DNA of 64,000 nt from Okamejei kenojei (lineage: Eukaryota), in NCBI GenBank assembly GCA_035221665.1, contig CM069145.1, forward strand, positions 32,054,001 to 32,118,000. Direction: 5' to 3'. The stretch's first letter is position 1. The number at the start of each line of letters is the position of its first letter. A program made the position numbers and the translations under genes. This document shows, in pieces, positions 1 to 57,189 of the stretch. Under the pieces are notes generated by a model. It worked only from the letters and a program-made list of their open reading frames with translations, was not told the DNA's origin and searched no databases.

Positions 1-505
1 TCTAACTCCTTATTTACAAATCCTGCCTCCTCGTTCGAATTCCCTAAAGCAGCGAAACAGCATCTAGGCATCCACATCAATTTCCCTCAGAAGCCCATAT
101 GTTTTCATAAAATCACTTCTCATTCTTTCAATTCCTAATGTATCAGCCCAACTTGCTAAATCTTTCTTCATAAAACAACCTACCCATCTCAGGAATGAAC
201 AAAGTGAACTTAAATAACTAAATTCACTGCAACTATGTTCTTCCATAAATGAGGATAACAATAATTGTATGCAGTACTGCAGTTGTGGTTTCACCCTGTA
301 CAGCTGTGCCAAGATATCCTTACTTTTGTACTCCAACTCTTTTACAATCAATGCCAACATTCCTTTTACCCTCTGAATTATCATTTTACTATAAGCCAAA
401 TTTCTGCTGCATGTATAAGGACAACCAGATCCCTCTGTACTCCAGTCTCTCTCCAATCAAACCATTTTCCATTTTTTCCTACCTACTTTTCAAAGCTTGC
501 CTCTC
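1..505 (-). mobile_element. Degenerate CR1-type LINE ORF2 3' fragment
   Basis: Minus-strand translation KELEYKSKDILAQLY..VKPQLQYCIQ and RMRSDFMKTYGLLREID resembles the CR1 ORF2 C-terminus. Confidence 0.7.
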
Positions 506-1959
506 ATTTTTTCTTCCCACAATTGTGCTGGCGTTGGCTTTAGTTAGAAAATCACTAAAGACATACAATAGGTTTTCAGGACAGACTTATTTTAGTCGCA
601 TGTTCATCTGATCAGAAATAAATACGTTTCCTAATTTTTCCCAACATTGATTACTTTGATAGGATTGCCATGCCTAATTCAAAGTAACAATGTTCCCAAC
701 CTATAGGGTATCTAGCATCAATTCAGAACTGTAACCCCTATTTCACACAAATTATTCACACTGAGCTTTACATAAGGAAACTGTGACTAGATGGTTAATT
801 TACAATTCTGCAGGTTCACAGCATAATTTATTTAATGATTTAGATTATGGAGATATTATCAATTGCTGTATGCCAGACACTGTGATCAATCTTTCCTTAG
901 CTGCAAACAATTAGATCATAAACTTGTTTGGCTATAAAACATGTGTTCAACACATGATCTTACAATCTTTCTAAGGTTTCTAAAGATCAGTAGTCCTGAT
1001 TCTAATCAGCAGTCAGTGCTCTTAAAAAAGGCATTGTCCTGATGAAAAAGTGTTTGGCAAAGTTTTCTAGAATCTAGGAGGGCAAAAAAGGGCCCAAAAG
1101 TGTTCTTTAATGTTTGTTGGATGATTGTATTTACAGATTATGTAATTCTGATTGACATCACTACACCTGGAGTTTACAGAGAGAAACCTAAATATGATTA
1201 CAAATCATTTATTTTATTAAGAAAGAAGTGATACACCCATCTCCATGGAAGCAGTGGCAGTAGGAATGGGCTATTTTTAAGAGACCACCTGTTTTTTCCT
1301 TGCACATTGTATTTCATACAAACTGTTGGCAATACAACTAATTATTAATCCACTCTACTCCTTAAAATGTAATTATTTCCACGTGGCAACTGTGATTCTA
1401 TTTCAACATATTATTACGCATTTGACATTTAATTGCATGAAATATTTTTTTGTGGGTTAACACCCTGCCATTGATACAAATATTCTTGTGAATGTGATAA
1501 TTGTGGTAAGTCAACACATCCAAGATTTGTTATATTAGCAAGCATAATTGCTTTATGTGGTGATGTTACTGATATTTTGAGCTGAATAACAGTTCCAGGA
1601 ACTATGCCAATCATAGGCATTATTCTTTCTAATTCTGCTTTTTTTTTTCAAACGTTGCAATGTTTCTTGCAGGGTAAATCTTAGAATTTTGCACAGATGA
1701 TCCTCTGCAACCTGTTTCTTCCTCACTTGAGTTCCAAGTGGTTTTAGTGCACTTCTAGTGTTCCGTAGCACCCAATTGCAAAGGTGTTGCCTCAGAACAT
1801 TTGTGTGCAGTAACATCGAATGTACTCCTGTTAAAATCTGCTGGAATGAGGATTAATATGATTCAGCCTTGCGTGGAAATCAACTTGTTTGCGGGAGAAC
1901 AGCTATCTCCCTGCTTGCTATTAGCCATTCATGGCAGTTAATTAATTGCTTTTGAAATA

Positions 1960-2077
1960 CAGTGGTATTTTCTTTGGAGTGATCGTTTCCTACAGTGCAA
2001 CAATAATTACATTTCGAAATTACTTCGTTGCTTGTACGGCATTTTTTGGCACACTTTGGAAGAGACTTGAAAGGCAA
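1960..2077 (+). mobile_element. Ancient Deu-SINE (SacSINE1/AmnSINE1-like) 3' relic
   Basis: GTTTCCTACAGTGCAACAATAATTACATTTCGAAATTACTTCGTTG...CTTTGG...TGAAAGGC resembles the family tail as I recall it; a similar relic is at ~14110-14180. Confidence 0.4.
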
Positions 2078-2078
2078 G

Positions 2079-2170
2079 CCTGAAGAAGGGTTGCCTTTCA
2101 AGTCGACACCCATCCCTTCTCCCCAGAGATGCTGCTTGTCCCGCTGAATTACTCCGGCATTTTGTGTCTC
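2079..2170 (+). mobile_element. Penelope-LTR-like repeat with overwritten stem II
   Basis: CTGAAGAAGGG...CACCCATCCCTTCTCCCCAGAGATGCTGC...CCCGCTGAATTACTCC. Confidence 0.7.
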
Positions 2171-3089
2171 CCCATGCTGAAGAACAGGTTACACAATGAT
2201 GTATGATTGAGGTTCGCGCATGTAGCAACTGCACTGCTCCACGTGTTTATACGCAGTGCCTGTTACGGAGGTGGTACGTTTGTGTTTCGCAGTTTAAAAT
2301 AATCAATAACTTCTGAAACATTCAGCAACAATCCCAATATGAACTTTATCGCAACATAGATCAGGCAAAATTAAGCTACTGGCACTCAACTCTCCTAAAA
2401 TGGCTTTAAAAAGTCACCTGTGATAATGAAGGAGAGGCAATAAATTACCGACGACGCATATATACTGTGAAAGGATGGATTAAAAAAAACATGGTGCAAC
2501 TTCAAACTATCATCAGAGAAACCAAGAACCGGTTCAGAGCGTTTTGCTAATTCGTTTCTTTTTAAGGAGAGAATCTTGAAGACATTTGTTATCCCAAAAA
2601 AAACCATTTGGTTCCATGAAACTTTCAGGTGGATTAATTTTATCTCTATGCTAGGATTTTCGCCTGTATCTTTTAAGAGTGTTTGTTTTTGTCCAGGCTG
2701 CCTTCCCGTGAAACAAATCCTGCTAGCAATTATTTTTTGTTTAACTGGAAAGAGCATTTGCGCGGTGTTGACGGTTACACCGGATGAATCTGGTCTTGTC
2801 CTGGTTATTTATATAGAGTTTATTTTATAGACTATTTGTCCGATTTAAATAATGCCTCTAATATTAATAAGCATCTTAAAGAAACATAATCCTGAGACCC
2901 GAGTTGCTGAAATACTGGAAAATACAAGCGACGATCAGCAGATTATCCACTGATTTACAATATTTTGCATTACATTATCGTTGCAGTTTTCTATGCGCGG
3001 AAGGCTTTATTTAATTTCATTTATTAAAATAATGGTTTACAAAAATATACCCTGAAATCTATTAACCAATAGGAAAATATTAATGTCGG

Positions 3090-3245
3090 AAGGAACAGGT
3101 GCTGATTTAAACCGAAGATAGACACAAAAAGCTAAAGTAATCAGCGCGTCAGAGAGCATCTCTGGAGTAAACGTCACCTATTCCTTTTCTCCAGAGATGC
3201 TGTCTGACCCGCTGAGTTATCCCAGCTTTTCCTGCTCATCTTCAG
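3090..3245. mobile_element. Fold-back copy of the Penelope-LTR-like repeat
   Basis: GAAGATAGACACAAAAAGCT...GCATCTCTGGAG, then its complement CTCCAGAGATGC...AGCTTTT...ATCTTC. Confidence 0.7.
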
Positions 3246-3593
3246 GAATTTTGTATTGATTTAAACGGTTGAAATGCCCAATTTTCTGATCTGCCGTTTA
3301 ATTGTGATGGGCAGAAAAACGTGTTTTTTTTTCCATTTGTCACTAATGAATAAATCCGGATGATTAATCCTCCTCAGAACCATGTGCCACCGATTACACT
3401 GTACATTTACATTACATTGTGCAAGAACGCTTTCAAATGTGAGTAATCCCTTTCTAATGAACTAAACCGTGCCCTAAGCGCTATAAAATGTACTTGTAAT
3501 TCTATATAAAAAGAGATGCAGTACATTTAATCGAATAAAAAGAATAACGACTTCATTATACATTGAATGCATAATAGAAAACATTAATGGATT

Positions 3594-3906
3594 GAAAGAT
3601 ACAGCATGACAACGTGGCCTTTGGCCCACAGAGTCCATGCCGACCATTGATCTGATCACATACTTGCTCAAATTAGTTCTATGTTATTCCACTTTCTCAT
3701 CCACTTGCAACACTCGAGGGGCAATTTACAGAGACCAATTAACCTACAATCCCGCACCACTTTGGGATATGAGAGGAAAGCAGAGGAAACCCACGCGGTC
3801 ACAGGGAGAACGTGCAAACTCCACACAGACAGCATTTGAGATCAGGATTGGACTAGGTCTCTTGCGCTGTGAGGCAGCAGCTCTACCAACTGCGCCAATT
3901 TGCCAC
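3594..3906 (-). mobile_element. HE1-like V-SINE
   Basis: tRNA-like head (complement of TGTGAGGCAGCAGCTCTACC), V-domain GGGAGAACGTGCAAACTCCACACAGACAGCA, LINE-derived tail. Confidence 0.8.
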
Positions 3907-5079
3907 CGCCTTTGTTATAAAGTAGAGGAACGCGGATCACTGGTCAAAACCAATATCGATTATTTTATCTTTTGTATATATTTTCAATTTTTCGTGCAAT
4001 GATGAACAAGCTGGTACTGTTTTTTAATGGTGATTTTTTAATAATATTTTTTTAAAGAATGTCACTCAATATTACGCTAGTTATTATATACACAGCGCGA
4101 ATTATAAATTGATTTATGTTGTACTTAGATATGACCCGTCATTGTTAATAATATTATTTGATATTGAGATGCCTCATCTCCAATCAACCAATGAAAGGAT
4201 CAACCCTAAAGCAATTTCGGAGACGTTACCTCAAATGCACCTTTGTGACTTTGCAATATATTGCGTGCGTGGCCGCATTAGGTATATTAAAAAAAAATAT
4301 TTCGCACTTCAGCAATGGAAGCCTCCAAAGGGACCGATAATCCATGCCGGGGGGGAGGAGGGGAGGGGAGGGGAGGGGAGGGGGGGGGGGGGTTGGGGGG
4401 ATAATCCCTGTGAAATATCGCCACCTTATTGACAAAAATGTAAAACAGACAACAGGTATTCGCAGCTCCGAATTAAAAAAAAGTCTTACTGCAAGGTACA
4501 CCTTTCTTTTTCAACGATCCTTATACCTTTACAGTCGGATATGAAATTCTTTCACTCGCTTAGTTTAGCAAAGTAAAGTTTATAGCTACATTTAACCAAC
4601 TCTTCAACCTCGCCTTGTAGCTGCCTCTTCTCATTAAACGAACAAACGCGTGATGTGCACTGATCTTAAACCAAAGTACGCGCTTGTTTTTAAAAACAGA
4701 ACACATGGAAACCATGGTGAAAGTTATTCGTTTCTTTGAGATCGTCACTGGGGACTGTAATATTCATGCTGAACATATTCCCCGATCGTTGGTCTCATAA
4801 ATCCGTCGGCGATGCAGGAAGAATGAACGGAGTTCAAACCTTCCCGTGGAAGCCCCGAATGGCCTTGTTATCGGTCGAGCATTCTCCATTGACTCGAGGG
4901 TACTAATATTCAAACCTAAACAACGCGGAGAAAGGGAGAAAAGTTTAAATTAGAAAATATATCCTTTGCCCAAAAATAATCCCTAGACCTCTTGACGGGA
5001 GAACGATAAAAGCAATGTTTATTGCAATTTGCATTCTTGCAAATGCTAGATTTTCTGGACAATTTAGGTTTAGATGCAG

Positions 5080-10432: not shown

Positions 10433-12431
10433 TTACTTCAAGAATTATTAATGAAGTATCGGGCTTTAGTTAACATGTGTTGTTAAATGTGCCCGCCATT
10501 CCTCGCCCTCTACCCGCCATTAATTGCACCGTGGGACGTTGGCCAGTTGAGTGGCACGCTGCACAACAGACTGGCAAGCACATCTCCAAGTAAAATGCAA
10601 ATGACAGTCAACGTGGCCAATTTAAATTTAAATCTCCAAGCAATTTATTAAAATGCAAACACCGGCAATACACCAAGGATACTGCATACATACCGAACAC
10701 CTCAACTGCAGGTCAAAGGGCCCCGGCAGATTAGGAGTAGGGACACCAATCACGAAGTGCGTCGAGTAGGAGCCATAAATGATAGTGGGCCAGAAAAATA
10801 AAGTAGGTTCTTCTCTGAGGCTAGTACTTTTTTGGGGAGGCGGGGGGCGGTGGTGGTGAGAGTTGTTCCATTGCAAAGAATGTTCACATATTTCTGCAGA
10901 GTGCAGACATTTAGGGAATGATTGGACTGCGGCGAACCACATTTGCATTCCACAATGGCAAAACGTTTCTATGGTTATTGTTCCATTTAATAACATCGCG
11001 TGGAATGCAAGATAGATGTTAGTCATGGAAAGCAAGTCTAGGTGAACGGCGGGCATTAGCTGCGAATTGAGCAGTTCGTTATTTTACCGGACAACATTCC
11101 TTTTCTGACTTGAGATGTTTATTTAGTGCCGCCTGAAAAAATCTGCTTCCAGCTGCACAATTCGCAGAATTCCTCTTGCTGGAAGGTTAACTCGTCGAAT
11201 GTGATAAATGCATACTTGAAACTATAGTTTAAATCGCCATAGACATCGGCTCGCGCGAACGCTTTCCCTTGAAACTATTCACTCCTCATTTCATAATTAC
11301 GAATAATTTGCAGATTCTTACAGGTGCAGAGAGTGGAGGCGGCGTGACTGAACTGTGACATTGACCAAGGGTTACAATTAAATTGACCGGGTGTGAGCAG
11401 ATCAGTTTCACAGAGCCTAATATGTCACTCATACATCCAAAGTCCGCGACTGCGTTGGTTTTAGCGGGAGACCTTAACACTTTTTTTCTTGCCTGCTCAG
11501 TTTACAACCTCTCCTTCAAAAATACCGAATTATTTCTAAACCACGTAGTAAGCAAAGTTGCGCTCGTATTTATCTGCAGCTTGTTGTCCACTGTTGATAT
11601 TGAACAATAAATAATAAATGTAATCAGACGCTGCATAACCTATCTGAACTTTTTAAAATCATTGATGTAAACGTATTCATCTCGCCAGTGGCGCTGAGAT
11701 CGATTGATATTTGTTTCGATAATATACTGTATGTATTTCAATGTTAATCTGAAGGTATAAACAGTATTAGTGTTTAAATAGTTTGAAATACATGTAGCGC
11801 ATGCAACATTTTACAAAATATTTAAATTAAGGATAATGCAAGCCGCAACTTTTCAGTTTATTGTTCATGGCACACACAACTTTAAAAAAACAGGGCGGAA
11901 GCTGGGCCTATTAATTAACCATTTGTGACTACATCTAAAACCAAGTCTGAAAACGTTTGTGACTGATTAAAATTGCTTGATTAAATATGCCTTCAGTACC
12001 ACCCAGAGGGGTTCCGGCACTCGGTGTGCGTCACAACGTGGATACAGTCTTCCTCTCCCTGATAGACGGGGAAGGGTTACAGTAGCTGTCACACAAAGAT
12101 ATACAATCACGGTGACACCAAATGCACACGTACTTCTTATTTGCAAGAAAGTTGTTATATAAACGAATATACACAAATGTCATGTACCTTTACATTTAAT
12201 TACACGTCAATAACCCGGCAGACGAAAAGTGTTGTCACATGATGAGAATCATATAAGCGTGTTCCATCTTTCAATGATCACACACGCCCGAAACCCAACT
12301 GGCGCATTCTGTAAAAAATAAAGTATTACAGAGTTAACATATTTTTCCTTGTTTCATTTTGTCGGACATTTATAGCGTTACATATATTTCGCCTATGACA
12401 TGTTCTATGAAAAAAAATGTCATTTTGTAAA

Positions 12432-12610
12432 GTAGACAAAAGTGCTGGGGAAACTCAACAGGCACGGCAGCATCTATGGAGAGAAGGAAATATGCAACGT
12501 TTCGGCCCGAAACATTGCGTATTTCCTTCGCTCCATAGATGCTGCCGCACCCGCTGAGTTTCTCCAGCACTTTTGTCTACCTTCGATTTTCCAGCACCTG
12601 CAGTTCCTTT
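12432..12610. mobile_element. Fold-back copy (variant subfamily), 74-bp arms
   Basis: Arms 12432-12505 and 12507-12580 centred on TTTCGG-C-CCGAAA; extra 3' LTR sequence CCAGCACCTGCAGTTCC. Confidence 0.8.
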
Positions 12611-18329: not shown

Positions 18330-18515
18330 AATGAACTGCAAATGCTGGTTTAAACCGAAGATAGACACAAAAAGCTGGAGTAACTCAGCCGGACAGGCAG
18401 CATCTCTGGAGAGAAGGAATGGGTGACGTTTCGGGTCGCGACACCCATTCCTTCTCCAGAAATGCTGTCTGTCCCGCTGAGTTACTCCAGCTTTTTGTGT
18501 CCATCTTCGATTAAA
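18330..18515. mobile_element. Fold-back copy of the Penelope-LTR-like repeat, ~75-bp arms
   Basis: 18349-18425 is complementary to 18442-18515. Confidence 0.8.
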
Positions 18516-25339: not shown

Positions 25340-25727
25340 ATGTTCCAGCCAACACCTAAGCGGTGTTTTACCATTGAATCTCTAGTCGCCAAGGACAGTC
25401 CACTGCCTGCTTCGAGATCAGAGGAACCTATAAGGCCAGCCGCCCTCAGCTATGCGAACTCTAGCCCCGTGAATCCATTCCTGAACGGCTTCCATACCAG
25501 CGGCAGGGCAATCTACTCCAACCCGGAGTTGGTGTTCGCTGACGCGGTCTCTCACCAAACCAACACGGCAGTACCGGTTCACCCTGTCCCTCCACATGCT
25601 TTAGCAGCGCACCCTCTTCAATCGTCCCATTCTCCACATCCCTTATTTGCATCGCAACAAAGAGATCCTTCGAGTTTCTATCCATGGCTAATACACAGGT
25701 ACAGATATCTGGGACACAGGTTTCAAG
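25340..25727 (+). CDS. emx2: Emx2 homeobox transcription factor, coding exon 1
   Basis: AAACC-ATG start; translates [19 protein letters not shown]...[17 protein letters not shown](G), the Emx2 N-terminus with eh1 motif FTIESLV; ends at CAAG|GTACGT donor, phase 1 (388 nt). Confidence 0.98.
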
Positions 25728-26970
25728 GTACGTCCTATTTTAAAGAACTGATTTTTTTGTTGATTTTTTTTCGATCTCATGCCGTCGATATGTTGCCCAT
25801 CAATTTCCTGCTTCCCCCCGCTACCCCGTGACAGATTCTATATTTACGGCTTCTCCGTAGCGCAGCACTTTAATTGTAGTCTTTAGTGAAGGAGACCGAA
25901 AGTTTGACGCAGGAGTTTGCTGTCGGGCCCTTTTCCATCGCTTGGCGGAAAACTGCCCTGCTGTGAAAGTTGTAGAGAGGGGGACGATCCTGGTTGTAAA
26001 TGCCGAAGATTCAGAGGCAAGCAGAGAAGCGGTCGGTGCACGAACGGGTACATAGGTAGGGGATTGAAATTGTTGGCGTATGTACTGGTTGCTAGATTTA
26101 GCCATGGCCGACAGCATTTGCAACACACGGCACTGTACTGCAGCGAATTCGCGTCGACTGTAGAAACACACTCGCGGGCGATTTTCATTTCGTTTCTGAG
26201 TCAGTCTCATTACTAAATATTGAAGGGCCGGGACCCGACGGCGAAGTCTATACAGCGCTTGCAGTCTGGAAAAAAATGCAGATTTCCATAAGTCTGGCGG
26301 TCTCGCCATTCTTGCATTTCCCCTCTCTGCATGTGCCCACATATCCAAGTGAATTATATATAAATGTATATATATAATATATATTTTTTTAAACGGTTTG
26401 TTGTACCAAGTGGAATTGAGATGTGTGAGTTAGAAGAGCGATTGCATTATTTTTCAGGTCGAACGATCCTTAACGCAAATGAATGCATTTGAGAGTAAAC
26501 TAATTATTTTCATCGGTTTTTAGTCATTTTGTCCTTCGTGCAGCAGGTTAACGAGTTAGTCTTGATATAGTGAATAATAACTGACAACTATATCTTGCCG
26601 TTGAGATGTGGTTGTGTTGTGATAAATATGTTTTGTATTTTGGACTCTGTATTCGTTCCGATATACTGACAGTGGTGTATAATGTCCGCTCGACGGATGC
26701 AAATATGTTTATTTGAAGGATGTTATATTAAACGAATTCAACAAAATTAAATCGAAGTTACGTGCAATTTTAAAACATTAGAAATGTAGCGACTATATCC
26801 TTTACGCTTCAAAGTTTACATTGCGGTTTTGAAGCAACTAACTTCGCTGCATACTGGACTCTGGAACCCATAAATGACTTTCAAAACTGCTATTCAGCAG
26901 CACGATTCAGTGACGTTCAGAAACCACCGAACCCTCTTGTTGATTTCCAATTCCAATTCCGATTTTATGA

Positions 26971-27300
<330 letters not shown>

Positions 27301-29046
27301 TAGTCGTTTTTTAACATATCAGGATTCAGAGTTTTCACTGCATTTTTAATATATTTTTAACGGGTTACTTTATGTGAATGGAGATTTATTTAAAACTCGA
27401 ATGAAACCACGCAAGAAGGGCGTTCTGATCAAGTAGATTCGTACACGTTACACTCTGGACAATCCCAGGCGCTATTCTGCAACGGTTTGCTGATTTGTAA
27501 TTTCCCTAAATTGCTCATTGAAATATTTATCAAAATAATGAGGGGGGAATTATGCAATTTTCACGGCGTTGATCACATACAATTAACGTTTAGTGCCAAT
27601 AGGTGATGTTTAGAGATGAACGTTGCCATTCATCTGGTCGAGCTCCGCGCTGTTGCTGATTGTAGTCGCGAATATTAAGAGCCGTTTATTTTGCCCTTTG
27701 GGTTTTGTTCGACATGCATGATGTTTGGGATCCTCGGTGCTGCCACTTAAGAAAAAAAAGGAGTCGCCCAGAAGTACTGATGACATCTGACATTTCACGT
27801 CCCGTTGAATATTTGCATCAGATCATTTCTGTCAGCAAGCTCTTTGCAGTCCCGAAATCTTAATGACAATTGAAAAGTGGAGTGTGCGCAGGTAGAAAAT
27901 AAAGAAGGTGCAAGAGATTTGTGTATGAAATAGGACCAACGCGGGCTCACATTCTGCAAAAGTCTGTGGACGAGCTTCATTTTTAGAAAGCTTTGTGCTT
28001 TTCAAAATCGTCACGGGCAAAACATTGAGCAGGAACAAATAGGTGGCCTTCTCCATTTGCTCGTCGAACAAGGGAGCGGTCAGGCTTAATTTCCTATTTA
28101 ATGTGTTCTTTAAGGTGGCTTTGTGTGACGGCGAATCGATGCTGGCTGGGTGCTTTTGTCTGGGTGGCGGGCTTGGCCTGAACAAACGAGATCCTTTTGG
28201 AGACCAATAGCCTCCCCCTCAATTAGGGAAGAGAGAGAGAGAGAGGTTGTTTTGCATGCTTAGACGAATGGACAAGTGATTTTCAGCGCAAACCCGTGTG
28301 TGTGTTTGAGTGCTCTATATACAAGCACACTGAGACACTGGTGTACCAATCTGTTAATTAACCTAGTATCTTAATGTTCTGAATTTTAAATAATATCACA
28401 GAAAAGTACGCATCACCTGTGCACTTGCTAAGGCAATGTAAAATGCATATAATCCCGTTCCCAAATTGTAATACACTGCCCTTAATGCGAGATTTATATC
28501 GATTTTAGAATATGAACTTGGAGAAATTACAGACATAATAATGATGGGCACCCGTTTTTAAAGTGGAAGCATTGATCTTGTGAAACTGATCGTGAAACGG
28601 CTGTGCGTGTGTTGTTGTTGACTGCGGAGTGCAGCCCTCTTCGCTCGGTGACACTTGTGTACAACTTTGCCGCATCGCAGTCGCTGAGTTGAGATGTTCG
28701 AGTTTGAAACCTGGAAGGAGAATTCGAATTGTTTTGATTGTTTTTTTGCCAACTAATTTGCAGTCAGTGGGCGCCCTACAACATGGGAGGCGAGACTGCA
28801 AACAATACAAGTGTTTGTCCGAAAATGCTATTGCTGTAAAAACGCATGAATGTAATGGGGTGGGTTTGGTGGGGGTAAGAAAATGAAAGGGTGGAAGGTC
28901 AGCAGAATAGGTTCACAGTTCGCACCAGAGGATGGCATCTTTTAGCCTTTATTTTATATAATTAAATAAACACCATTTAAACATTCTCCTCAACCTCCCC
29001 GAGCTAATAGTTACAGTAGAAAACCGTGCAGAATAATATTGCAGAT

Positions 29047-29049
<3 letters not shown>

Positions 29050-29098
<49 letters not shown>
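29050..29098. repeat. (TA)n microsatellite in Emx2 intron 2
   Basis: About 24 TA units. Confidence 0.95.
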
Positions 29099-29103
<5 letters not shown>

Positions 29104-29299
29104 TGTAAGATGAGAACAAATCTCTAACCGATGGGCCCTGAAAAATCCCAAGCGTCAGTCATAATCAAAGATAATGTTTTTTATTGAATCGCACAATATA
29201 ATTCAGGCACCGCTGAAATGTGTATGCAAATATCATTTACTGTTTTATTGTCCAATTTTAATGACCAATTCAGTAGAAACTTTTGAAACTTTTTTTCAG

Positions 29300-29467
29300 G
29301 TAAAAGTGTGGTTCCAGAACAGAAGAACGAAATTTAAACGGCAGAAGTTGGAGGAGGAAGGGACAGATGCACAACAGAAGAAAAAGGGGACCCATCATGT
29401 CAACCGTTGGAGACTTGCGACCAAACAGTCGAGCCCTGAGGAGATCGATGTCACCTCGGACGATTAG
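29300..29467 (+). CDS. emx2: Emx2 coding exon 3 (homeodomain helix 3 and C-terminus)
   Basis: TTTTTTCAG| acceptor; [55 protein letters not shown]-stop. Spliced CDS is 388+185+168=741 nt, 246 aa. Confidence 0.98.
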
Positions 29468-34614: not shown

Positions 34615-34786
34615 NNNNNNNNNNNNNNNNNNNNNNNNNNNNNNNNNNNNNNNNNNNNNNNNNNNNNNNNNNNNNNNNNNNNNNNNNNNNNNNNNNNNNN
34701 NNNNNNNNNNNNNNNNNNNNNNNNNNNNNNNNNNNNNNNNNNNNNNNNNNNNNNNNNNNNNNNNNNNNNNNNNNNNNNNNNNNNNN
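34615..34786. other. Assembly gap (172 N)
   Basis: Run of N. Confidence 1.
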
Positions 34787-42687: not shown

Positions 42688-43740
42688 CTAAATTGATCTT
42701 TGCCTCCTAATCCCATTTTCCTGCCTTCTCCCCATAACCATTGACGCCCGTTCAAATCAAGAATTTGTCAACCTCTGCCTTAAAACAATCCACTGACTTG
42801 GCCCCCACAGCCTTCTGTGGCAATGGGTTCCACAGATTAATTACCCTCTGACTAAAGACGTTCCTCCGTACCTCCTTTCTAAAAGAACGGCCTTTAATTC
42901 TGAGGCGATGACCTCTGGTCCAAGACTCTCCCACCAGTGGAAACATCCTTTCCACATCCACTCTACCTATGCCTTTCATTATTCTGTAAGTTTCAATGAG
43001 GTCCCTCCTCAATCTTCTAAACTCCAGCAAGTAGAGGCCCAGTGCTGTCAAACACTCATCATATGCTAACCTACTCATTCCTGGAATCATTCTTGTAAAC
43101 CTTTTCTGGACCCTCTCCAGAGCCAGCTCACAGTACTCCAAATGCGGCCTGACCAGCGCCTTATTTAGAGCCTCAGCATTACATCTCTGTTTTTGCATTC
43201 CAGTCATCTTGATATGAATGCAGGCATTGAACTTGCAAATTAACTTTTTGGGAGTCCTGCACCAGCACTCCCATGTCCCTTTGCACCTCTGGTATGTGGA
43301 TTCTTTCTCCATTTAGAAAATAATCTATTCCTTTATTCTTATTGCCAAAATGCATGAACCCACACTTTGCTATACTGAATTTCATCTGCCACTTCTCTGC
43401 CCACTCTCCTAACCTGTTTAAGTCCTTCTGCAGAGTCCTAGCTTCCTCTGCACTGCCTGCCCCACCCATCTATCATAGCATCATCTGCAAACTTGGCCAC
43501 AAAGCCACCAATCCCCTTATCCAAGTCATTAATATACAATGTGAAGAGAAGCGGCCCCAGTACCGACCTTTGCAGAACTCCACTAGTCACTGGCTGCCAA
43601 CCTGAAAAAGCGTATTTTATTGAAACCCCTTGTTCAGCCATTCAGCCAACCCACTATCCATGCTAGTATCTTCCCATTAATACCATTGGCATCTTCCCTA
43701 GCAGCCTGATGTGCGGCACCTTATCAAAGGCCTTCTGAAA
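42688..43740 (-). mobile_element. CR1 LINE reverse-transcriptase fragment
   Basis: WQPVTSGVLQRSVLGPLLFTLYINDLD...KFADDA, LQKDLNRLGEWAEKWQMKF and ALVRPHLEYC...LERVQKRFTRMIPG; frameshifted. Confidence 0.92.
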
Positions 43741-46915: not shown

Positions 46916-47326
46916 TTTTGCACAAAACAACACATTAAGTTTCCAATCATTGCATGATCCTCATTGTTATTTTCCTCAAGAAAAAAAATAGGTCTACACT
47001 TATCAAAGAATAGGATTATCTGTATATGCTTACATGACCTAATGTCACCTCCTAAATAAAGTGCACAATATGCCAAAGCAATCATTTAGATATAATTTAA
47101 TTGCAAATGCAAGCTAAAATCTCTTGGAAGATTTTAAGGACACTTTGCTGTCCCCATTACCATTTTAAAGTGTTTTTCATTCAAATTGATGTTAATTGAG
47201 TAAGGAGAGGATACAATAAAGCATGTATGGAAAGAAGGTTTACTACTTTCTGCAACATTTTTGTCAGATTTCTCCTGAATGTGTGAATCTGAGTATTGAA
47301 AGTGGGAAGAACTTTGAGGGGTGTGA

Positions 47327-48172
47327 GAGACAAGACAAGAGAGACATTTATTTGTCACATGTACCAATTGGTACAGTGAAATGTGCAGTCACCATACAGC
47401 CATACGAATAAAAAAGAGCACAGAACACGATAGTCTTTAACATAGACATCCCCACACAGCGGGATCAAAGTTTCCCACTGTGAGGGATGGCACCAAAGTT
47501 CAGTCATCGTCCTCTGTTGTCCTCTGTTGCTCACCCATGGTCGGGCGGCTCCCGAACCCCTCGCTGTCGCCGCTACGGGTGGCCCGCTGTTCAGGCCCAC
47601 TCGTCAGATGATGGAACTCCAACGTCAGAACGGGAGAACATTCTCAGAGGCTTGGACTTCTGAATCGGCCACTTCCTACCGGAGACCGCGGCTCCCGAAG
47701 TCCACAGGCCGAGCTGCTCAAAGATTCACGCTGGCGGCCCTCGGCAAAGGGATCCCAGGACTCCGTGATGTTGAAGTCAGCGCCGCCCGCACTGGAAGCT
47801 CTGCAAACCACAGCTCCGCGATGTTGAAGCAACAGGAGCTTCAAACGGCGATCCTGGTAAGGCATCGCCCGCATCGCGGTGAATCCAGTGCTGCGCCGCT
47901 GCTGAAGCTTTGGTCCAGTCCCCGGCAGGAAAGGCCGCGCCAATCCAGTTGGTAGACCGCGGGGGTGGGGCTAAGATGCAACTCGGAGAATAGTCACATC
48001 CTCGCCAGGAAGTGACTGAGAAACGGTTTCCTCCTTGCCCTACCCCCCTCCCCCACAGAGAAATACTAAATAAAATCCTCCAAAACGAACTTTTAAACAA
48101 ACTAAAAATTTAAAAAAGATAGAAAAACAGACAGACTGCAGGTAGAGGCTGCTATCAATGCGGCGCCCCTAG
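47327..48172 (-). mobile_element. CpG-rich non-coding retroposon with (TCTTG)n tail
   Basis: Sharp GC/CpG-rich block; minus-strand 3' end TTTCACTGTACCAATTGGTACATGTGACAAATAAA plus a microsatellite tail, similar to 57323-57365. Confidence 0.6.
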
Positions 48173-49175
48173 TAGTGTGGTAGTGAAGCCACCTTCTATC
48201 TATATTAGACATCTATTGCACATGCACACCTTCCACCAATATGTCATTAGACCACAAGTAGGATTGGAAAACCCGCTCATCATTCTTTTTCTTTATTCAA
48301 GCACAGTTCTTTCTTGATGTAAAATAAAAGCTCAAATCATCTCCAGTTTGCTTTACACAAATTATTGGATTCTGAGCCATATATTGTACACTAACTTTGA
48401 TTTTAGTATTTATTCAACTATCTTTAAACAACGTTTCAAATATTATGAAAGTATAACAAACATCTAGAAACATGCTTGAAAATAGAAACTGATCTCACTG
48501 TCCCTGTAATGTTGATGGATCAGTTATTTGAATTTCAAATTGCATAGACACACTGGCACCAAATTCATTCTAAAACATGCATATTCAAGTAACAGTATAA
48601 TGTTGACACACAGCATTATACGTAATAGCTAATTCTAATGACTATCATTTCCTCCATCTTTTTTGTCAGAATTTGCACACATTTAAGCATAAGGTGGAGA
48701 ATCTAATGGGACTTTGGATGTGTTGATGATGGAAAGAATTGTTTTTCTTGCATGTACCTGTTTTGGTTTCCATATTTCTTGTTACAATTTTCCTGCAGAC
48801 ACATATTAGCTCTCATTATCTGTTTTTTATCTACAATTTGACCTTGAGGAAAAGCAAATGTATCATAACCACTTTAGTGGTGGTGTTTAGTTCGTCAACA
48901 ATACCTATATCTATGCTGCTTTGTCAACCTACTGAAACTTAGTTTTGGAACAATTGTATGTCTTCAGTGCTTTGTGATTAGATCTGAAAAGTGAATGGAA
49001 ATTTTACTTCGGAGTCACGTGAGTGACTTCGTGAAGACCCCGCCAGCACGCATGCGCAGCATATCGTCGTGCGCATTTGCATCGGCAGGCTGGGGGGGGG
49101 GGGGGGGGAGTGCGCTCTCTCCTCCGGCTCCTTCATAAAAGGCCGGCAGGTAAGTGCTTACCTTCACTCCACAGG

Positions 49176-50340
49176 ATGGACAAGGGCAAGAGGAAGGCGA
49201 CGCTGTCCAGGAGCCGAGCTGCATCGACCAGCCAATGGCCCTTGTCCCCGGAGCTGCAAGCACCACCGGCAGCTTCGAGACATGTGGGGGCAAGAATGCG
49301 GAAGTCGGGCGCTCCCGCTACTTTAGCGCCCGACTCATCACCTGAGTGGTTTACCGCCCCAGAGCTGGATGCAACGGATCCAGACTTCGAGCCCCCTTCC
49401 CCCAAGAAAAGAGGGGGGAAACAGGTACGTGCCAAGGGGCTTCGCTCATCGCAAGCGACCCCACCCCGAGTTCCAGTAGACCCGAGGGGGCTGGGCCGGG
49501 GGACAGCTGCACTGCAGGGGAGCCCTACAGCTGTGCTCCACCACGTACCACTGCCAGGGAGATCTGCCATAGTGCAGTCTGGCAGCTCTACTGCTGCGTC
49601 GAGCAGGCCTGCAGGAGCAGGTGCCGCCGACAAAACACCCCGTCAGGCTGCGGTCAAGGGCGGAGGTGGCAGCAGTAGACGGTCGGTCAGCTCAGCTCTG
49701 GGAGCGGCCGACCATGCGCCTCCACGCCAAAAATTGGGCGATTGTGGAGGTAAGCCTGCACGGACTCTGGGGAGCCAGGTTCCGGGGGCCGGCGCCGATC
49801 CAACTCACCTGCCTTCATATCAGACAGGTGGGCCGTCACAGTCTGGAAGAAGACAGACTAGCGGAGAGTCCGTGCGGGAGTCATATGAGCGTACTTGGGC
49901 GGTAGGCCACGACAACCTGCCATTGGACACTAGACAGCACCTTACGGAGGTGTGGTCCGATGGTGGAAGCCCCAGTGATTTCGCAGGGCCTGGGGAAGTT
50001 GGCTTGTCCGCTGCACATAGCAGGGACGGTCGCATAGAGTGGTTGGAGCTCTTAGTGGAGCAACTCCTCCAGCGGGACCAGGAACGGGAAGAGCGGGACT
50101 CACGGGCATCCACAAGCCGTGCAAGGAGCCCGCTCAGCATCTCGTCGTCACCAGCCAGAAGTGCTAGCAGTTGCCCAGCCGTTGTGTTTGAAGACGACCC
50201 AGGACAGCCAGTGACCGCTGAGCCAGAGCATGAGGAGGTTATGCTGGACTTGGTGGGCAGGTTTGCCGCTACTACACAAACAGGGGATCCCCTGCACCAC
50301 AAACTGGCGGGCACCGTTGATTACCTGACTACTCACCAAT
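49176..50340 (+). pseudogene. DIRS ORF1 (gag-like), 5' part
   Basis: Open low-complexity ORF from MDKGKRKATLSR to ...GDPLHHKLAGTVDYLTTHQ directly behind the left ITR; interrupted at 50341. Confidence 0.75.
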
Positions 50341-50799
50341 TCACTGAGCGGTTCCCAGCACAGCTTCTGCGAATGTTGCAGGGGCGACCAGTGGCTTATT
50401 GTAGAATCGTTGAAAGGTTTCTTCACTGGCCCAGCCCGCGGTGGCGAGGATGTGGTCCATGGGCACCTCCATGGCCCTCGCCGCTGATGTGGATGCAGCC
50501 CTAGTGGAATGAGACTTAAAAATGTCAGTAGCAACTCCTGCTGCATCCAGCACCACCCTGAGCCACCTGGCGATAGTCTGTACGGTCACCCGATGATGCG
50601 GAGGTTTGTGGCTGATGAGGAGCCCCTGTTCCTTCATCCTGATGGCTCCTGTAATCCCGATGTAGTGGTGGAGATGGGTGACTATGCAGAGAGTGGCATC
50701 TACAGGGTATGCCCGAAATTCCAACTGTAGCCCATGCGCCCCTGGTCTGTGCTGCTTCAATAAATCTTGGACAAAGAAATTTATTTGACCAGGGATGAT
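50341..50799 (-). pseudogene. DIRS tyrosine recombinase C-terminal fragment (inverted)
   Basis: ...LKQHRPG...YPVDATLCIV...TIARWLRVVLDAAGVATDIFKSHSTRAASTS...ILATAGWASEETFQRFYNKP: H-x-x-R, W and catalytic Y of phage-integrase-family recombinases; the N-terminal catalytic Arg region is absent. Confidence 0.9.
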
Positions 50800-50898
50800 A
50801 CCATAGAGAAAATAAAACCGCCCAAGAACTGCATCAACCTCAGTGTGCCCTTGGTTAATGCCCAGATCTGGGGACACTTGAGTACGGCCACCAGATCT
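50794..50898 (+). pseudogene. DIRS gag continuation fragment
   Basis: My translation DDTIEKIKPPKNCINLSVPLVNAQIWGHLSTATRS fits the P-x-NC-xx-L-x-VP-x-VN-xx-IW motif I recognise from DIRS ORF1 proteins. Confidence 0.7.
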
Positions 50899-52130
50899 GT
50901 ATTTTACGAGGAGTCGCGGTGAGGGATTTCGTGCCCCCCGCTCCCACCCTCTATCATAGGATCAACTAGGAAGTTCTGCGTTCTTCATCTTACTATTTTT
51001 AGTCATGGTGCGTTCTGTGATTCCACACCGCTGCTTTGAAGGATGCTGCGCATGCGTGCTGGCGGGGTCTTCACGAAATCCCTCACCGCGACTCCTCGTA
51101 AAATACAGATCAACCTTCAAACTTGGTAAGTTCTCGTTTAATCTTACTAATAAATTTGATAATGCGTGATTACTTTTCAAAGAAATGTTATAGTTTGGTC
51201 AGCACTTCAACAACTTGCAGTCTGGGCTTTGTTTGAACCCAAATCCTTGGCAAATGTCCATGAATTAGTATCTTCATTAGGACTTAGTCTGTCTGATAAA
51301 TGGAACAAACAATATCACACTGGCAGTACAGTGAAACATTAAATCTTGGACAAGAGAGGGTTCACTAGCAGTCCAGACATGCCTGATCCTGATGAGTAGA
51401 GGAATCATATGAGAAAACAATCACACATGTTTGTATCACAATGCATGTAACCTTTCATTCTGCGATCAAAAACACAGAATAACACGAGGAAGTCATTTTA
51501 CCCAATACACTAAAATGTCCTGCAATAATTATGGCACTGGCGATATTCCACATAGGCCAATTTAGTACAGACAGTTGGCAATTATGTTTCTGTATAGGTC
51601 ATGATCTTAATTATTACATCATATTTGAGTTGGGGATAATGCACGATGGATGTGGATGGAAAATTATTTGAAAGAAAAGCAGTTAAGGTAAACTCTATAC
51701 ATGAATCCTAGTTATGATCAGTTCATAAATGCATTTATCTTGAGCTGGTACTAATTATTAAAAATGAGCAAAAAGTCGAGTATAATTTAAACTTTGTGAT
51801 CCAAGTTTCAAAACTGAAATTTGTGGGGAGTTTTTATTGTTGGTACACTGCTTTAACATTAGCTGATAGGTTAACATGAGCAGAATGGTGAAGACTAAAT
51901 GCATCATCATGCTTCCAACGGAGTCCCTCAGTTTAAACATATGGGCCTTGGACGAAACTATGCAGCCTTGATTTTAAATGCCTGCATACTTAGCTCTCAG
52001 AATGTGTTTCCAAAATGAGAACGCTAATGGAACCAGCAGCTAAAGGAGGCATTGTGGCACTACAAAGAGAGAAGCATTACTGGCAATGCTGTGGACACCT
52101 TTGCCTCCCTGCTGCTCTGCACTATCATGC

Positions 52131-52428
52131 TTTAGACTATAGAGATACAACGAGAAAATAAACCCTTCAGCCCACCGAGACCGCACCGACCAGCGATCAC
52201 CCCATACCCTAGCACTATCATACACTCGAGAGAGAATTTACACTTTTTTTAACCAAAACCTATTAAACTACAAATCTGTAAATCTTTGGAGTGTGGGAGA
52301 AAACTGGAGCGCCTGGAGAAACCCCACGAGGTCACAGGGAGAAGGTACAAACTCCATACAAACAGCACCTGCAGTCAGGATCGAACTCGGGTCTAAGGCA
52401 ACAACACTACCACTGCGCCACTGTGCCA
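52131..52428 (-). mobile_element. HE1-like V-SINE
   Basis: GTGGGAGAAAACTGGAGCGCCTGGAGAAACCC...GGTCACAGGGAGAAGGTACAAACTCC and head CTACCACTGCGCCACTGTGCC. Confidence 0.8.
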
Positions 52429-52846
52429 TCCATTGTGCTGAGAATCTGCATGCTATGAAAGTGGCATGTATCCCTGCCCACTGTAGGGGGAGCTTGACAA
52501 GAATCCCTGTCCTCCACTGGTGGTCCTGGAAAAATGAATTGGCAAGTGGCCTGATGTGGAGAGTCTGCCCGTGAGAGCTAGTGAGGGATCCGCTGGAGCA
52601 AGTGTTGCAGCGGTCTGCCAATGCATGGACGAGCAGTTAGCAGTCACCAGGAAAGGCTCTCATTCACCGTGCAGGGCGAGCTGCAGTTCCCACCCCATAT
52701 CGTACCGCGATGACCACAGTGCTTGATCCTACCTGATGGACATCATTCCTCACAGGCAGCTACACGCTGAACTATAAGTGATTCATTTCCAGAGGAGAGA
52801 GCAGTGGAGTTTAAAGATCTGCGCCAGATTCTCAGAACCTGCCGCA

Positions 52847-53147
52847 CAGTGATGCAGAGGAAGAGCTGCTGCCTCACAGCGTCAGAGACACGGATTTGAT
52901 CCTCATGTGCTGACTGTGTGGAATTTATACGTTTTCCCTGCGGTTTCTCCGGGCGCTCTGGTTTTCTCTCCCACATCCCAAAGATGCCTGGGTCTGTGGG
53001 TTAACTGGCTTCTGTAAGTTGCCCCAGTGTGTAGAATGCATAAGTGGGATAACATAGAACAAATATACGGGTGATTGATGGTTGGCATGGACTTGATGTG
53101 CCGAAAGGCTTGTTTCAATGCTGTATCTCTAAACTCTAAATTCTAAA
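52847..53147 (+). mobile_element. HE1-like V-SINE
   Basis: GAGCTGCTGCCTCACAGCGTCAGAGAC head; TCCCACATCCCAAAGA V-domain; (CTCTAAA)n tail. Confidence 0.8.
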
Positions 53148-55681: not shown

Positions 55682-55882
55682 ACCTGCAGTTAAAACCAAA
55701 GATGGACACAAAAAGCTGGAGTAACTCAGTGGAGCAGACAGCATCTCTGGAGGGAAGGAATGGGTGACATTTCGGGTCAAAACCCTTCTTCAGACTGGAG
55801 AAGGGTCTTGACCTGTAACATCAACCATTCCTTCTCTCCAGAGATGCTGCCTGTCCCGCTGAGTTACTCCAGCTTTTTGTGT
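55682..55882. mobile_element. Fold-back copy with two opposed cores, 88-bp arms
   Basis: Arms 55706-55793 and 55795-55882 centred on CAG-A-CTG. Confidence 0.8.
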
Positions 55883-57189
55883 AAATCTTATAGCCCTGTC
55901 TCACGGTGCAAGTCCACCCACAAGTGACCCCAAGTGAGAGAAAAAAAACAGACTTGTGGTTGTGTACGAGATTCCAAGTTTATGTTCAAGCGTTTAACCG
56001 AGTTCCCACAGGTATGTCATTTCTGCGATGTTCCACGTTCCTCTCCTGAGTTACCAAGTTCCTCTCCCATTACTCTTGAGCCAACCGTGAATGAAGCAAA
56101 AGTGTTAAAGAAGACATCTCCATCCTGCGGCTTTGAGTTAAAGATAGAATTCAGCGTGGCCGCATCTATTGATATGACCTACAAAGGGAAAAAGCGCACC
56201 CTCCAGTGCCAGAGCAGTTACACTTATGATTTGTTTGAAACACACATCACGTAGTTAGAAGACCAGCGGGCGGAGGTTTGTTATATTTTAATTGAATTTA
56301 CTGCCAGGTCTACACACTGTGGGGAGACGGGAGATGAAATCTTTGAATGTGGACGGATGTCTCCGCGCCTGCTCGTTCTAAGCGGAATATATTTTTAGTT
56401 GCCTTTCAAGCCGGCAACTTGTTTTTGTGTATTCACACACACTTTTCGTGTGTGAGGGTGTGAGAAGTCCAAGTCGGGTGCCAGCCGGCTGGCCGCAGCC
56501 GCTGTTCTTTCACATCAGTTGCACATCAGTTTGTTGCGAGACGGAGCTCAGGGTTTGCCTCCTGAGCTGCTTTGGTGCCCAGGCGTGAGTTGAGGTGGAG
56601 GGAGGTTGGGTGGGGTGGGGGGCGCGTGGGCGTCATTAATCTGTCTGTAGTGACAAGGCTCTTGGGTTAGGATGGGATCATTCTCTGTGGGATGATCTTA
56701 GTGCGGGGGACAAGTGTAGGAGAGGTTGTACTGACTGTGTGGGCAGACACTTTGGTAGTGATTGCCCACCAGTCTGAAATCTGCTGTGTCTCCTTGTCCC
56801 TGGGATAGCAGGGGGGGATCAAACAGCACAGTACCCCCCTCCCCCTCCACGTCAACACGAAGGGCAACGATCCCAAGGCTTTAGCGTCAGAAACAGCGGG
56901 CAGGCAACAATCACCCGCTATAACGCTTCTCTAAACCCTTCCCATCCATTTATCTGTTGTTAATAACCTCAAGAAAATCCCTGCTTCAGTTTCCTGGGTC
57001 CAACTCAGAGAGAAGTCTCCCTCCTTTCCAGGGTTAATCGCTCCACTGTTTATAATGCTCTCTGCATTATGAAGTCCTCGACAGTGAACCCATGGGCAAT
57101 CACTACCAAAGTGTCTGCTCACACAGTCAGTACACTTGTCTCCCGTACTAAGTCACACCAACCCCCCCTCCCCTCCATTCTCCCCCCCT

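Follow-up and report, generated by a model that had tools for sequence, protein, structure and literature searches.

A DIRS1-like element of Okamejei kenojei with an inverted tyrosine recombinase fragment inside its gag region

Introduction

DIRS1-like elements, among them DIRS-1 of Dictyostelium, share nonidentical inverted terminal repeats (ITRs) with conserved and divergent parts, a right extension (rE), an internal complementary region (ICR) with complementarity to the right end, NTT/NAT termini with no duplication of the target, a gag-like first open reading frame (ORF1), and a tyrosine recombinase (YR) with an HSTR motif (PMC3266345, PMC9210276). NTT and NAT termini are listed for several elements in Table 3 of PMC3266345. 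According to the model for DIRS-1, the transcript lacks the element ends, which are templated by the ICR; deletion of the ICR abolishes transposition, while first-strand cDNA is still made (PMC7192593). Here we describe a copy of this kind at positions 49001 to 51148 of a 64,000-nucleotide stretch of the Okamejei kenojei contig CM069145.1 (forward strand, positions 32,054,001 to 32,118,000; termed the window and numbered from its first letter). It differs from DIRS1-like elements in that it lacks pol (with its reverse transcriptase [RT], RNase H, and methyltransferase), the N terminus of the YR, the left ICR, and the circle junction, in that its YR piece lies inverted inside gag, and in that it measures 2.15 kb instead of 4 to 6 kb.

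The engineered constructs DIRS-1[-ICR] and trDIRS-1 are comparable in being ICR-less or ORF-truncated; they could be reverse-transcribed but did not complete transposition (PMC7192593), whereas the window copy is natural and has kept 40 nt of the right ICR. PAT-like elements of the kangaroo group likewise have a YR opposite in orientation to gag, but they feature split direct repeats and a natively inverted YR region (PMC3266345), whereas the window copy has ITRs and an ICR, and its inverted fragment is out of place according to contigs of its family. No long direct repeat was found in the interval 47000 to 53000, and the termini are inverted repeats. Complex junctions that combine a deletion with an inverted insertion are known to arise by end joining or replication-fork template switching, and the window copy resembles them in a short loss at the insertion point, an inverted templated segment, blunt or few-nucleotide overlaps, and an adjacent larger deletion. 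It differs from such junctions, for which L1 examples are described in PMC11702581, in being confined to one transposon copy, and its sequence does not tell the pathways apart.

Results

A rearranged DIRS1-like insertion without target-site duplication

The window copy is most likely a one-off broken derivative of a DIRS1-like member, not a complete member. Its extent was established by comparison with Logan contigs from four of 24 listed sequencing runs (X1, X5, X8, and X14), of which X8, flagged as probably DNA, spans the element, not its flanks; none of the listed runs is catalogued as RNA. In a related organism (organism C, run X14), a single contig passes from positions 48500-49000 directly to 51149-51700 and differs from the window by 23 letters in approximately 1,050. 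Since this empty site contains no extra letters, the whole rearranged insertion comprises positions 49001 to 51148 (2,148 bp; the ends may shift by one base), begins with ATT, is followed by AAT at 51149, and is not accompanied by a target-site duplication; these are the ends already proposed in the first-pass annotation, which had been made from the letters alone. In the host species (organism A), a left-flank contig of run X1 (sample S1) enters the element at a depth of 41.8, and both flanks enter it in run X5 (sample S2, from a separate study), where the haplotype carries five flank differences. The insertion is real, common to both organism A samples, and absent from the organism C haplotype seen.

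Within these limits, the order is left ITR, gag up to 50339, inverted C-terminal part of the YR (50340 to 50794), about 100 nt of gag, the right ICR reduced to its inner 40 nt, and finally the right ITR with the extension, so that 19 nt of gag are replaced by 455 nt of inverted YR. The individual features are as follows.

49001 to 51148, plus strand: whole insertion (empty site of organism C; flank contigs entering the element in X1 and X5).
49001 to 49062, plus strand: left ITR with ATT start, consisting of a divergent outer part (49001-49027) and a conserved part (49028-49062); X1 and X5 each have about 250 contigs that start at 49001 and differ in their left flanks.
49063 to 49175, plus strand: 5' noncoding region (candidate promoter motifs).
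49176 to 50339, plus strand: gag-like ORF1, first 388 codons, mostly of low complexity (tail aligns weakly to protein P0020).
49176 to 50504, plus strand: chimeric reading frame of 442 aa (388 gag codons plus 54 antisense-YR codons).
50340 to 50794, minus strand: inverted C-terminal part of the YR, 150 codons with HSTR motif, stop codon 50343-50341, and two further bases (Pfam, homologues, family contigs).
50795 to 50898, plus strand: second gag piece with the motif PKNC...VN..IW, 3' end between 50893 and 50898 (P0020, relative L003, X8 joint and loose ends).
50894 to 50933, plus strand: right ICR, inner 40 nt (reverse-complement match; outer part present downstream of the YR of relative L001).
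50934 to 51042, plus strand: spacer between ICR and right ITR, holding a degenerate direct look-alike of the right end.
51043 to 51104, plus strand: right ITR (inverted-repeat match to left ITR).
51105 to 51148, plus strand: right extension, complete (empty site; family contigs passing from 51145-51149 to 49001-49010).
51149 to 51151, plus strand: AAT trinucleotide of the target site, no duplication (empty site).

The ITRs (62 nt; 49001-49062 versus 51043-51104) are 88.9% alike over 63 columns, and both the conserved and the divergent parts are present, the inner 35 nt (49028-49062 and 51043-51077) being identical. Positions 50894 to 50933 are the exact reverse complement of 51072 to 51111 (40/40), and this ICR remnant is complementary to the right terminus, which ends in the complete 44-nt rE. 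The folding score of 50795-51148 (z of -12) only restates this 40-bp pairing between ICR and ITR. As a whole, the element forms a GC-rich island. ITRs, rE, ICR remnant, ATT/AAT termini, a gag-like ORF1, and a YR with HSTR motif together bear out the DIRS1-like identity that had been assigned on first reading.

Read on the minus strand, the frame from 50793 to 50344 codes for the final 150 residues of a tyrosine recombinase, with a Pfam match to Phage_integrase (E = 0.001) that falls short of the curated cutoff. A protein search returned 18 of 1,420 candidates at E ≤ 0.001, the best three with 65 to 68% identity, and homology ends near 50793-50802. The YR is present only on the strand opposite to gag and only as these last 150 codons. 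The inverted piece stops two bases past its own stop codon (50339-50343), for which no reason was found. For gag, which gave no Pfam match and no homologue among 7,999 candidates, the gag-like ORF1 is present with weak alignment scores. The tail of the first piece aligns to residues 127 to 156 of P0020 (E = 0.002, weak) and the second piece to residues 163 to 197 (E = 1.4e-8, pairwise), so that the two lie six residues apart in this alignment; P0020 is a Leucoraja erinacea protein without named function, and the nearest named gag relative, from a skate, stands at 38% over 34 residues. The second piece also aligns to ORF1 of L003 (E = 1.7e-4). From the five matches of the second piece, P0019, P0021, P0022, and P0023 were dropped as repetitive look-alikes and P0020 was kept. 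The latter, annotated as an uncharacterized host protein with two isoforms, carries the conserved motif region twice in tandem within residues 53 to 197.

Family contigs and relatives show the normal order

The family is abundant, with about 250 contigs with unlike flanks beginning at 49001 in X1 and in X5 and 222 in X14. Summed contig depth over the element body, which is no copy number, amounts to 1e5 to 2e6 in X1 and X5 versus 24 to 42 in the flanks. Family contigs depart from the window at 50339 (16 in X1, 14 in X5, and two in X14) and behind 50794 (seven in X5), and hence the YR natively goes on, at either edge, into sequence other than that seen here. A single X8 contig joins 50339 to 50795, and five contigs of that run carry 19 other letters between these positions with the gag frame kept; the gag pieces are collinear in the family. 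The three-junction layout of the window copy is derived, not native, because family contigs and the relatives L001 and L003 are arranged in the usual way, which also led to the rejection of a natively inverted YR. Order and orientation of the fragments stand as first described, whereas the recombinase piece, then thought to reach about 50799, ends at 50794, and gag resumes at 50795.

Two relatives provide the full-length pattern. L003, found in one of 47 stretches, carries ORF1, a 709-aa pol with RVT_1 (E = 1.6e-21) and a Dam-like domain (E = 9e-5), and a YR, all on one strand; L001, one of two loci from 113 stretches, has the YR followed by an ICR on the same strand. In both, the YR lies on the same strand as gag. 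The L001 ICR matches the ICR fragment of the window in plus orientation (69% over 72 nt, E = 4e-6), includes the outer part missing from the window, and is 71% alike over 97 nt to the right terminus. L002 was dropped as a relative, as it gave no tblastx match to the element. The near-complete DIRS1-like element L003 (positions 1 to 3921) lies in a contig titled as a Sedimenticola metagenome-assembled genome and is probably eukaryotic contamination of that bin.

No tblastn match of the L003 pol (RVT_1 and Dam-like domain) was found anywhere in the window, which agrees with the RT/RNase H deletion noted earlier, and no second DIRS piece was found elsewhere in the window. L003 has 2,875 nt between the gag motif and the YR piece, and L001 has about 270 nt between the YR stop and the right ICR; from these spacings, approximately 3 kb would have been lost from an element of about 5.3 kb, a size estimated by analogy with the two relatives. 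The left ICR and the 3-bp circle junction are absent from the copy (best match, 15/27), and nothing in it corresponds to the right ICR's outer 37 nt (best match, 19/37). Family contigs do connect the right end (51145-51149) to the left end (49001-49010), in all 12 listed rows of 124, as would be expected where an ICR or circle junction is intact; from the window copy, the left ICR and the junction have been lost by deletion. With two-thirds of the ICR missing, the cis sequences needed for mobilization are not all retained.

At junction 1 (50339/50340), two bases past the YR stop, one base is shared; junction 2 (50794/50795) is blunt, with an overlap of 0; at junction 3, the ICR match begins at 50894, and a GATCT overlap of at most about 5 nt is plausible. 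The copy had initially been taken for a template-switch product, which is one candidate, but the overlaps at the three junctions also fit end joining. A perfect 14-nt palindrome (50281-50294) lies 45 nt upstream of junction 1, either by chance or as a possible stalling or break site.

Literature searches, whose scope did not extend to Repbase, Dfam, subscription journals, or supplements (where PMC3266345 and PMC9210276 may include copies of this kind), yielded no report of an inverted-YR DIRS derivative; nor did they find this abundant DIRS family described for the host group. Viral contigs gave no hit for the junction 1 pattern and none of 99 for the YR profile, although these collections are not expected to hold host DNA.

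The chimeric reading frame is within chance

The gag/antisense-YR frame of about 440 aa described previously is indeed present, running from the ATG at 49176 to the stop at 50504 (442 aa, 388 gag plus 54 antisense-YR codons). Read-through of at least 54 antisense codons is obtained from 9.6% of the 293 entry points in the segment, and composition predicts 0.11. Given that about 10% of entry points perform equally, the length of the chimeric frame is within chance, and selection on it was rejected (chance, 0.10). The exact sequence of the chimeric protein is not in a collection of 15 billion, and none of 57 candidates was related to residues 340 to 442.

Upstream of this frame, an octamer-like ATTTGCAT at 49075 and a TATA-like CATAAAA at 49134 are putative promoter elements. 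A short hairpin at 49148-49163, some 25 nt upstream of the gag ATG, has a 5' arm that looks like a canonical splice donor (cag/GTAAGT); in intact members, this site might be used for splicing a pol or YR message.

Age and copy number

The observed/expected (o/e) CpG ratio is 0.65 in the 5' part of the element, compared with 0.19 to 0.30 in four flanking stretches, and the frames are stop-free, observations from which a young copy had been proposed. Stop-free frames, however, are expected by chance with a probability of 0.55 at 1% divergence and 0.31 at 2%, and therefore they date the copy little and were rejected as proof of youth.

At positions 49836, 49883, 49891, 49929, and 50080, nearly all family depth shows a letter other than that of the window (among 40 listed of 390 rows). 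The remainder available for the window allele at these five sites is 0 to 585 in X1 and 0 to 356 in X5, against a flank depth of 24 to 42; at 49836, 0 of 218,904 is left in X1, and at 50080, 50 of 193,747 in X1 and 0 in X5. Word shares are 0.73 (X1) and 0.63 (X5), and after removal of flank differences, 36% and 46% of the sampled element words, respectively, are missing. These shares would imply about 1.5 to 2% private sites. Since a recently amplified derivative should be well represented, the scarce window alleles and missing words weakly favor a single aged copy over an amplified family.

Discussion

Probable rearrangement on double-stranded DNA

The explanation that we consider probable is that a copy of an abundant DIRS1-like family, inserted at an AAT site with both termini complete, was scrambled once on double-stranded DNA and is now immobile, as predicted from its missing parts. 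A full-length element, judged by its likeness to L003 and L001 to have measured about 5.3 kb, would first have finished its ends on an intact ICR and been integrated by the recombinase. One complex event would then have connected gag to the other strand just beyond the stop of the YR and led back to gag 19 nt further on; after about 100 nt of gag, it would have jumped to the middle of the right ICR, with a loss of roughly 3 kb. The pathway could be break repair, such as end joining of fragments, or replication-fork template switching, and we lean toward an event after integration, in the chromosome rather than in a finished circle, and in either case probably after the ends were complete. Lacking the left ICR and circle junction, RNA from the copy could still be reverse-transcribed in trans but would not rebuild the ends, leaving neutral decay at one locus.

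Both ends are complete although only 40 nt of the ICR are left, which argues that the ICR was lost after use. The inverted piece needs an opposite-strand template, and together with the late loss of the ICR this points to an event on double-stranded DNA. The close spacing of the two lesions (about 100 nt) and the origin of the inverted piece within the deleted interval favor one complex event over two independent ones; possibly, the YR piece was captured from another copy. Because the left ICR, the circle junction, and the outer right ICR are missing and the ICR is essential in DIRS-1, the copy is likely unable to rebuild its ends or to be remobilized.

Several points weigh against this explanation. 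The gag-gag joint is listed in one of the four runs and in one contig, whose short side comprises 28 letters, and the listed rows do not include the GATCT overlap from the gag side. No contig piece across any internal junction occurs among the 32 listed of 54,925, as would also be the case for an assembly chimera. The single-copy argument is weak in that rare variants are lost from Logan contigs, whose summed depth does not translate into copy number; moreover, the private changes could postdate an older amplification, which would be missed. The ITR core (35/35) and the ICR fragment (40/40) show no decay in 75 of 75 positions, which fits a young copy as well as one diverged by 1 to 2%. Finally, the ICR requirement is known from a single amoeba, Dictyostelium.

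Alternatively, the polymerase may have switched templates during second-strand synthesis on the completed circle, so that the element integrated already rearranged and was dead on arrival, a scenario that shifts the template switch proposed on first reading to a late step, overlaps in part with the preferred one but differs from it in timing, and that we regard as unlikely. It would account for precise ends and for three junctions that all join pieces of the element itself, and L1 insertions offer documented cases of multipiece and inverted inserts (PMC11702581). Switching at the stage of first-strand synthesis is disfavored, since the ICR would be lost before templating the ends (PMC7192593) and one sense RNA has no opposite-strand template. 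Twin priming of L1 depends on target-primed synthesis, which DIRS elements are not known to use, and this counts against an insertion that was dead on arrival.

An assembly artefact, in which fragments of a high-copy family were misjoined between true flanks, appears rather improbable. The great abundance of the family, a 172-N gap in the window (34615-34786), and the lack of listed junction-spanning pieces speak for it. Overlaps of 0 to 5 nt, however, are far shorter than the shared words behind graph misjoins, a collapsed repeat would presumably look normal and not like a three-junction product with a 19-nt loss, and the insertion itself is real in two samples.

We give very little credence to the proposal, raised in the first-pass annotation for the case of multiple copies, of an amplified 2.15-kb nonautonomous derivative that is mobilized in trans and whose RNA, antisense to the YR, helps to silence the family. 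The copy has kept its two termini and its 5' region intact and its gag frame open, the RT of DIRS-1 acts in trans (PMC7192593), and a nonautonomous element of DIRS order, TOC1, is named in Chlamydomonas (PMC9940879). Against this, the left ICR, the circle junction, and the outer right ICR are missing, window alleles and words are poorly represented in the contigs, the chimeric read-through is within chance, and a truncated DIRS-1 construct did not complete transposition, albeit in a confounded assay (PMC7192593). Intact DIRS-1 already makes sense and antisense RNA from its inverted long terminal repeats (PMC5633606), so that antisense YR RNA would not be unique to the window copy. Just as remote is a variant in which the 2.15-kb form would reside at several loci, its ends rebuilt in trans on the ICR of a helper's single-stranded cDNA, with YR-antisense RNA and the truncated gag fusion restraining the family in a defective-interfering-like manner.

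As a single dead copy, the element matters little, except as a complex rearrangement that is cleanly resolved and whose empty site documents insertion of the recombinase type (ATT/AAT, no duplication) for an abundant DIRS family. If the junctions were multicopy, they would instead be evidence of an ICR acting in trans, in conflict with the in-cis model that was tested in Dictyostelium, and the copy would be a natural defective-interfering DIRS element.

Further observations in the window

The degenerate direct look-alike of the right end (51116-51151) in the spacer spans 50961 to 50997, closes with a circle junction-like ATT, and reaches a score attained by none of 1,000 shuffles. Its bin is deeply covered by family contigs; in full-length members, the look-alike might form a pair with the outer right ICR, or else it might be a relic second terminus. 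Beyond the element, position 51485 shows another letter in all three DNA runs compared (two of organism A and one of organism C), making the window letter a private allele or an assembly error.

A three-exon homeobox gene (about 25340 to 29467; Homeodomain, E = 1e-12), which we take to be EMX2, lies such that the element is located about 19.5 kb downstream. CpG o/e values of about 0.5 to 1.3 from 2 kb to 42 kb suggest a broad domain of low-methylation-like character, whose end lies about 7 kb short of the element. A search of Rfam gave no matches in the window. A 186-aa minus-strand frame (42752 to 43312) without Pfam match presumably represents the 3' end of a CR1-type LINE (long interspersed nuclear element). 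Many short inverted-repeat and SINE-like (short interspersed nuclear element-like) sequences, 70 to 90% alike, are dispersed over the window (12429-12583, 18350-18515, 55699-55889, 52291-52985, and others), and the LINE and SINE-like repeats resemble, as we presume, those of cartilaginous fish.

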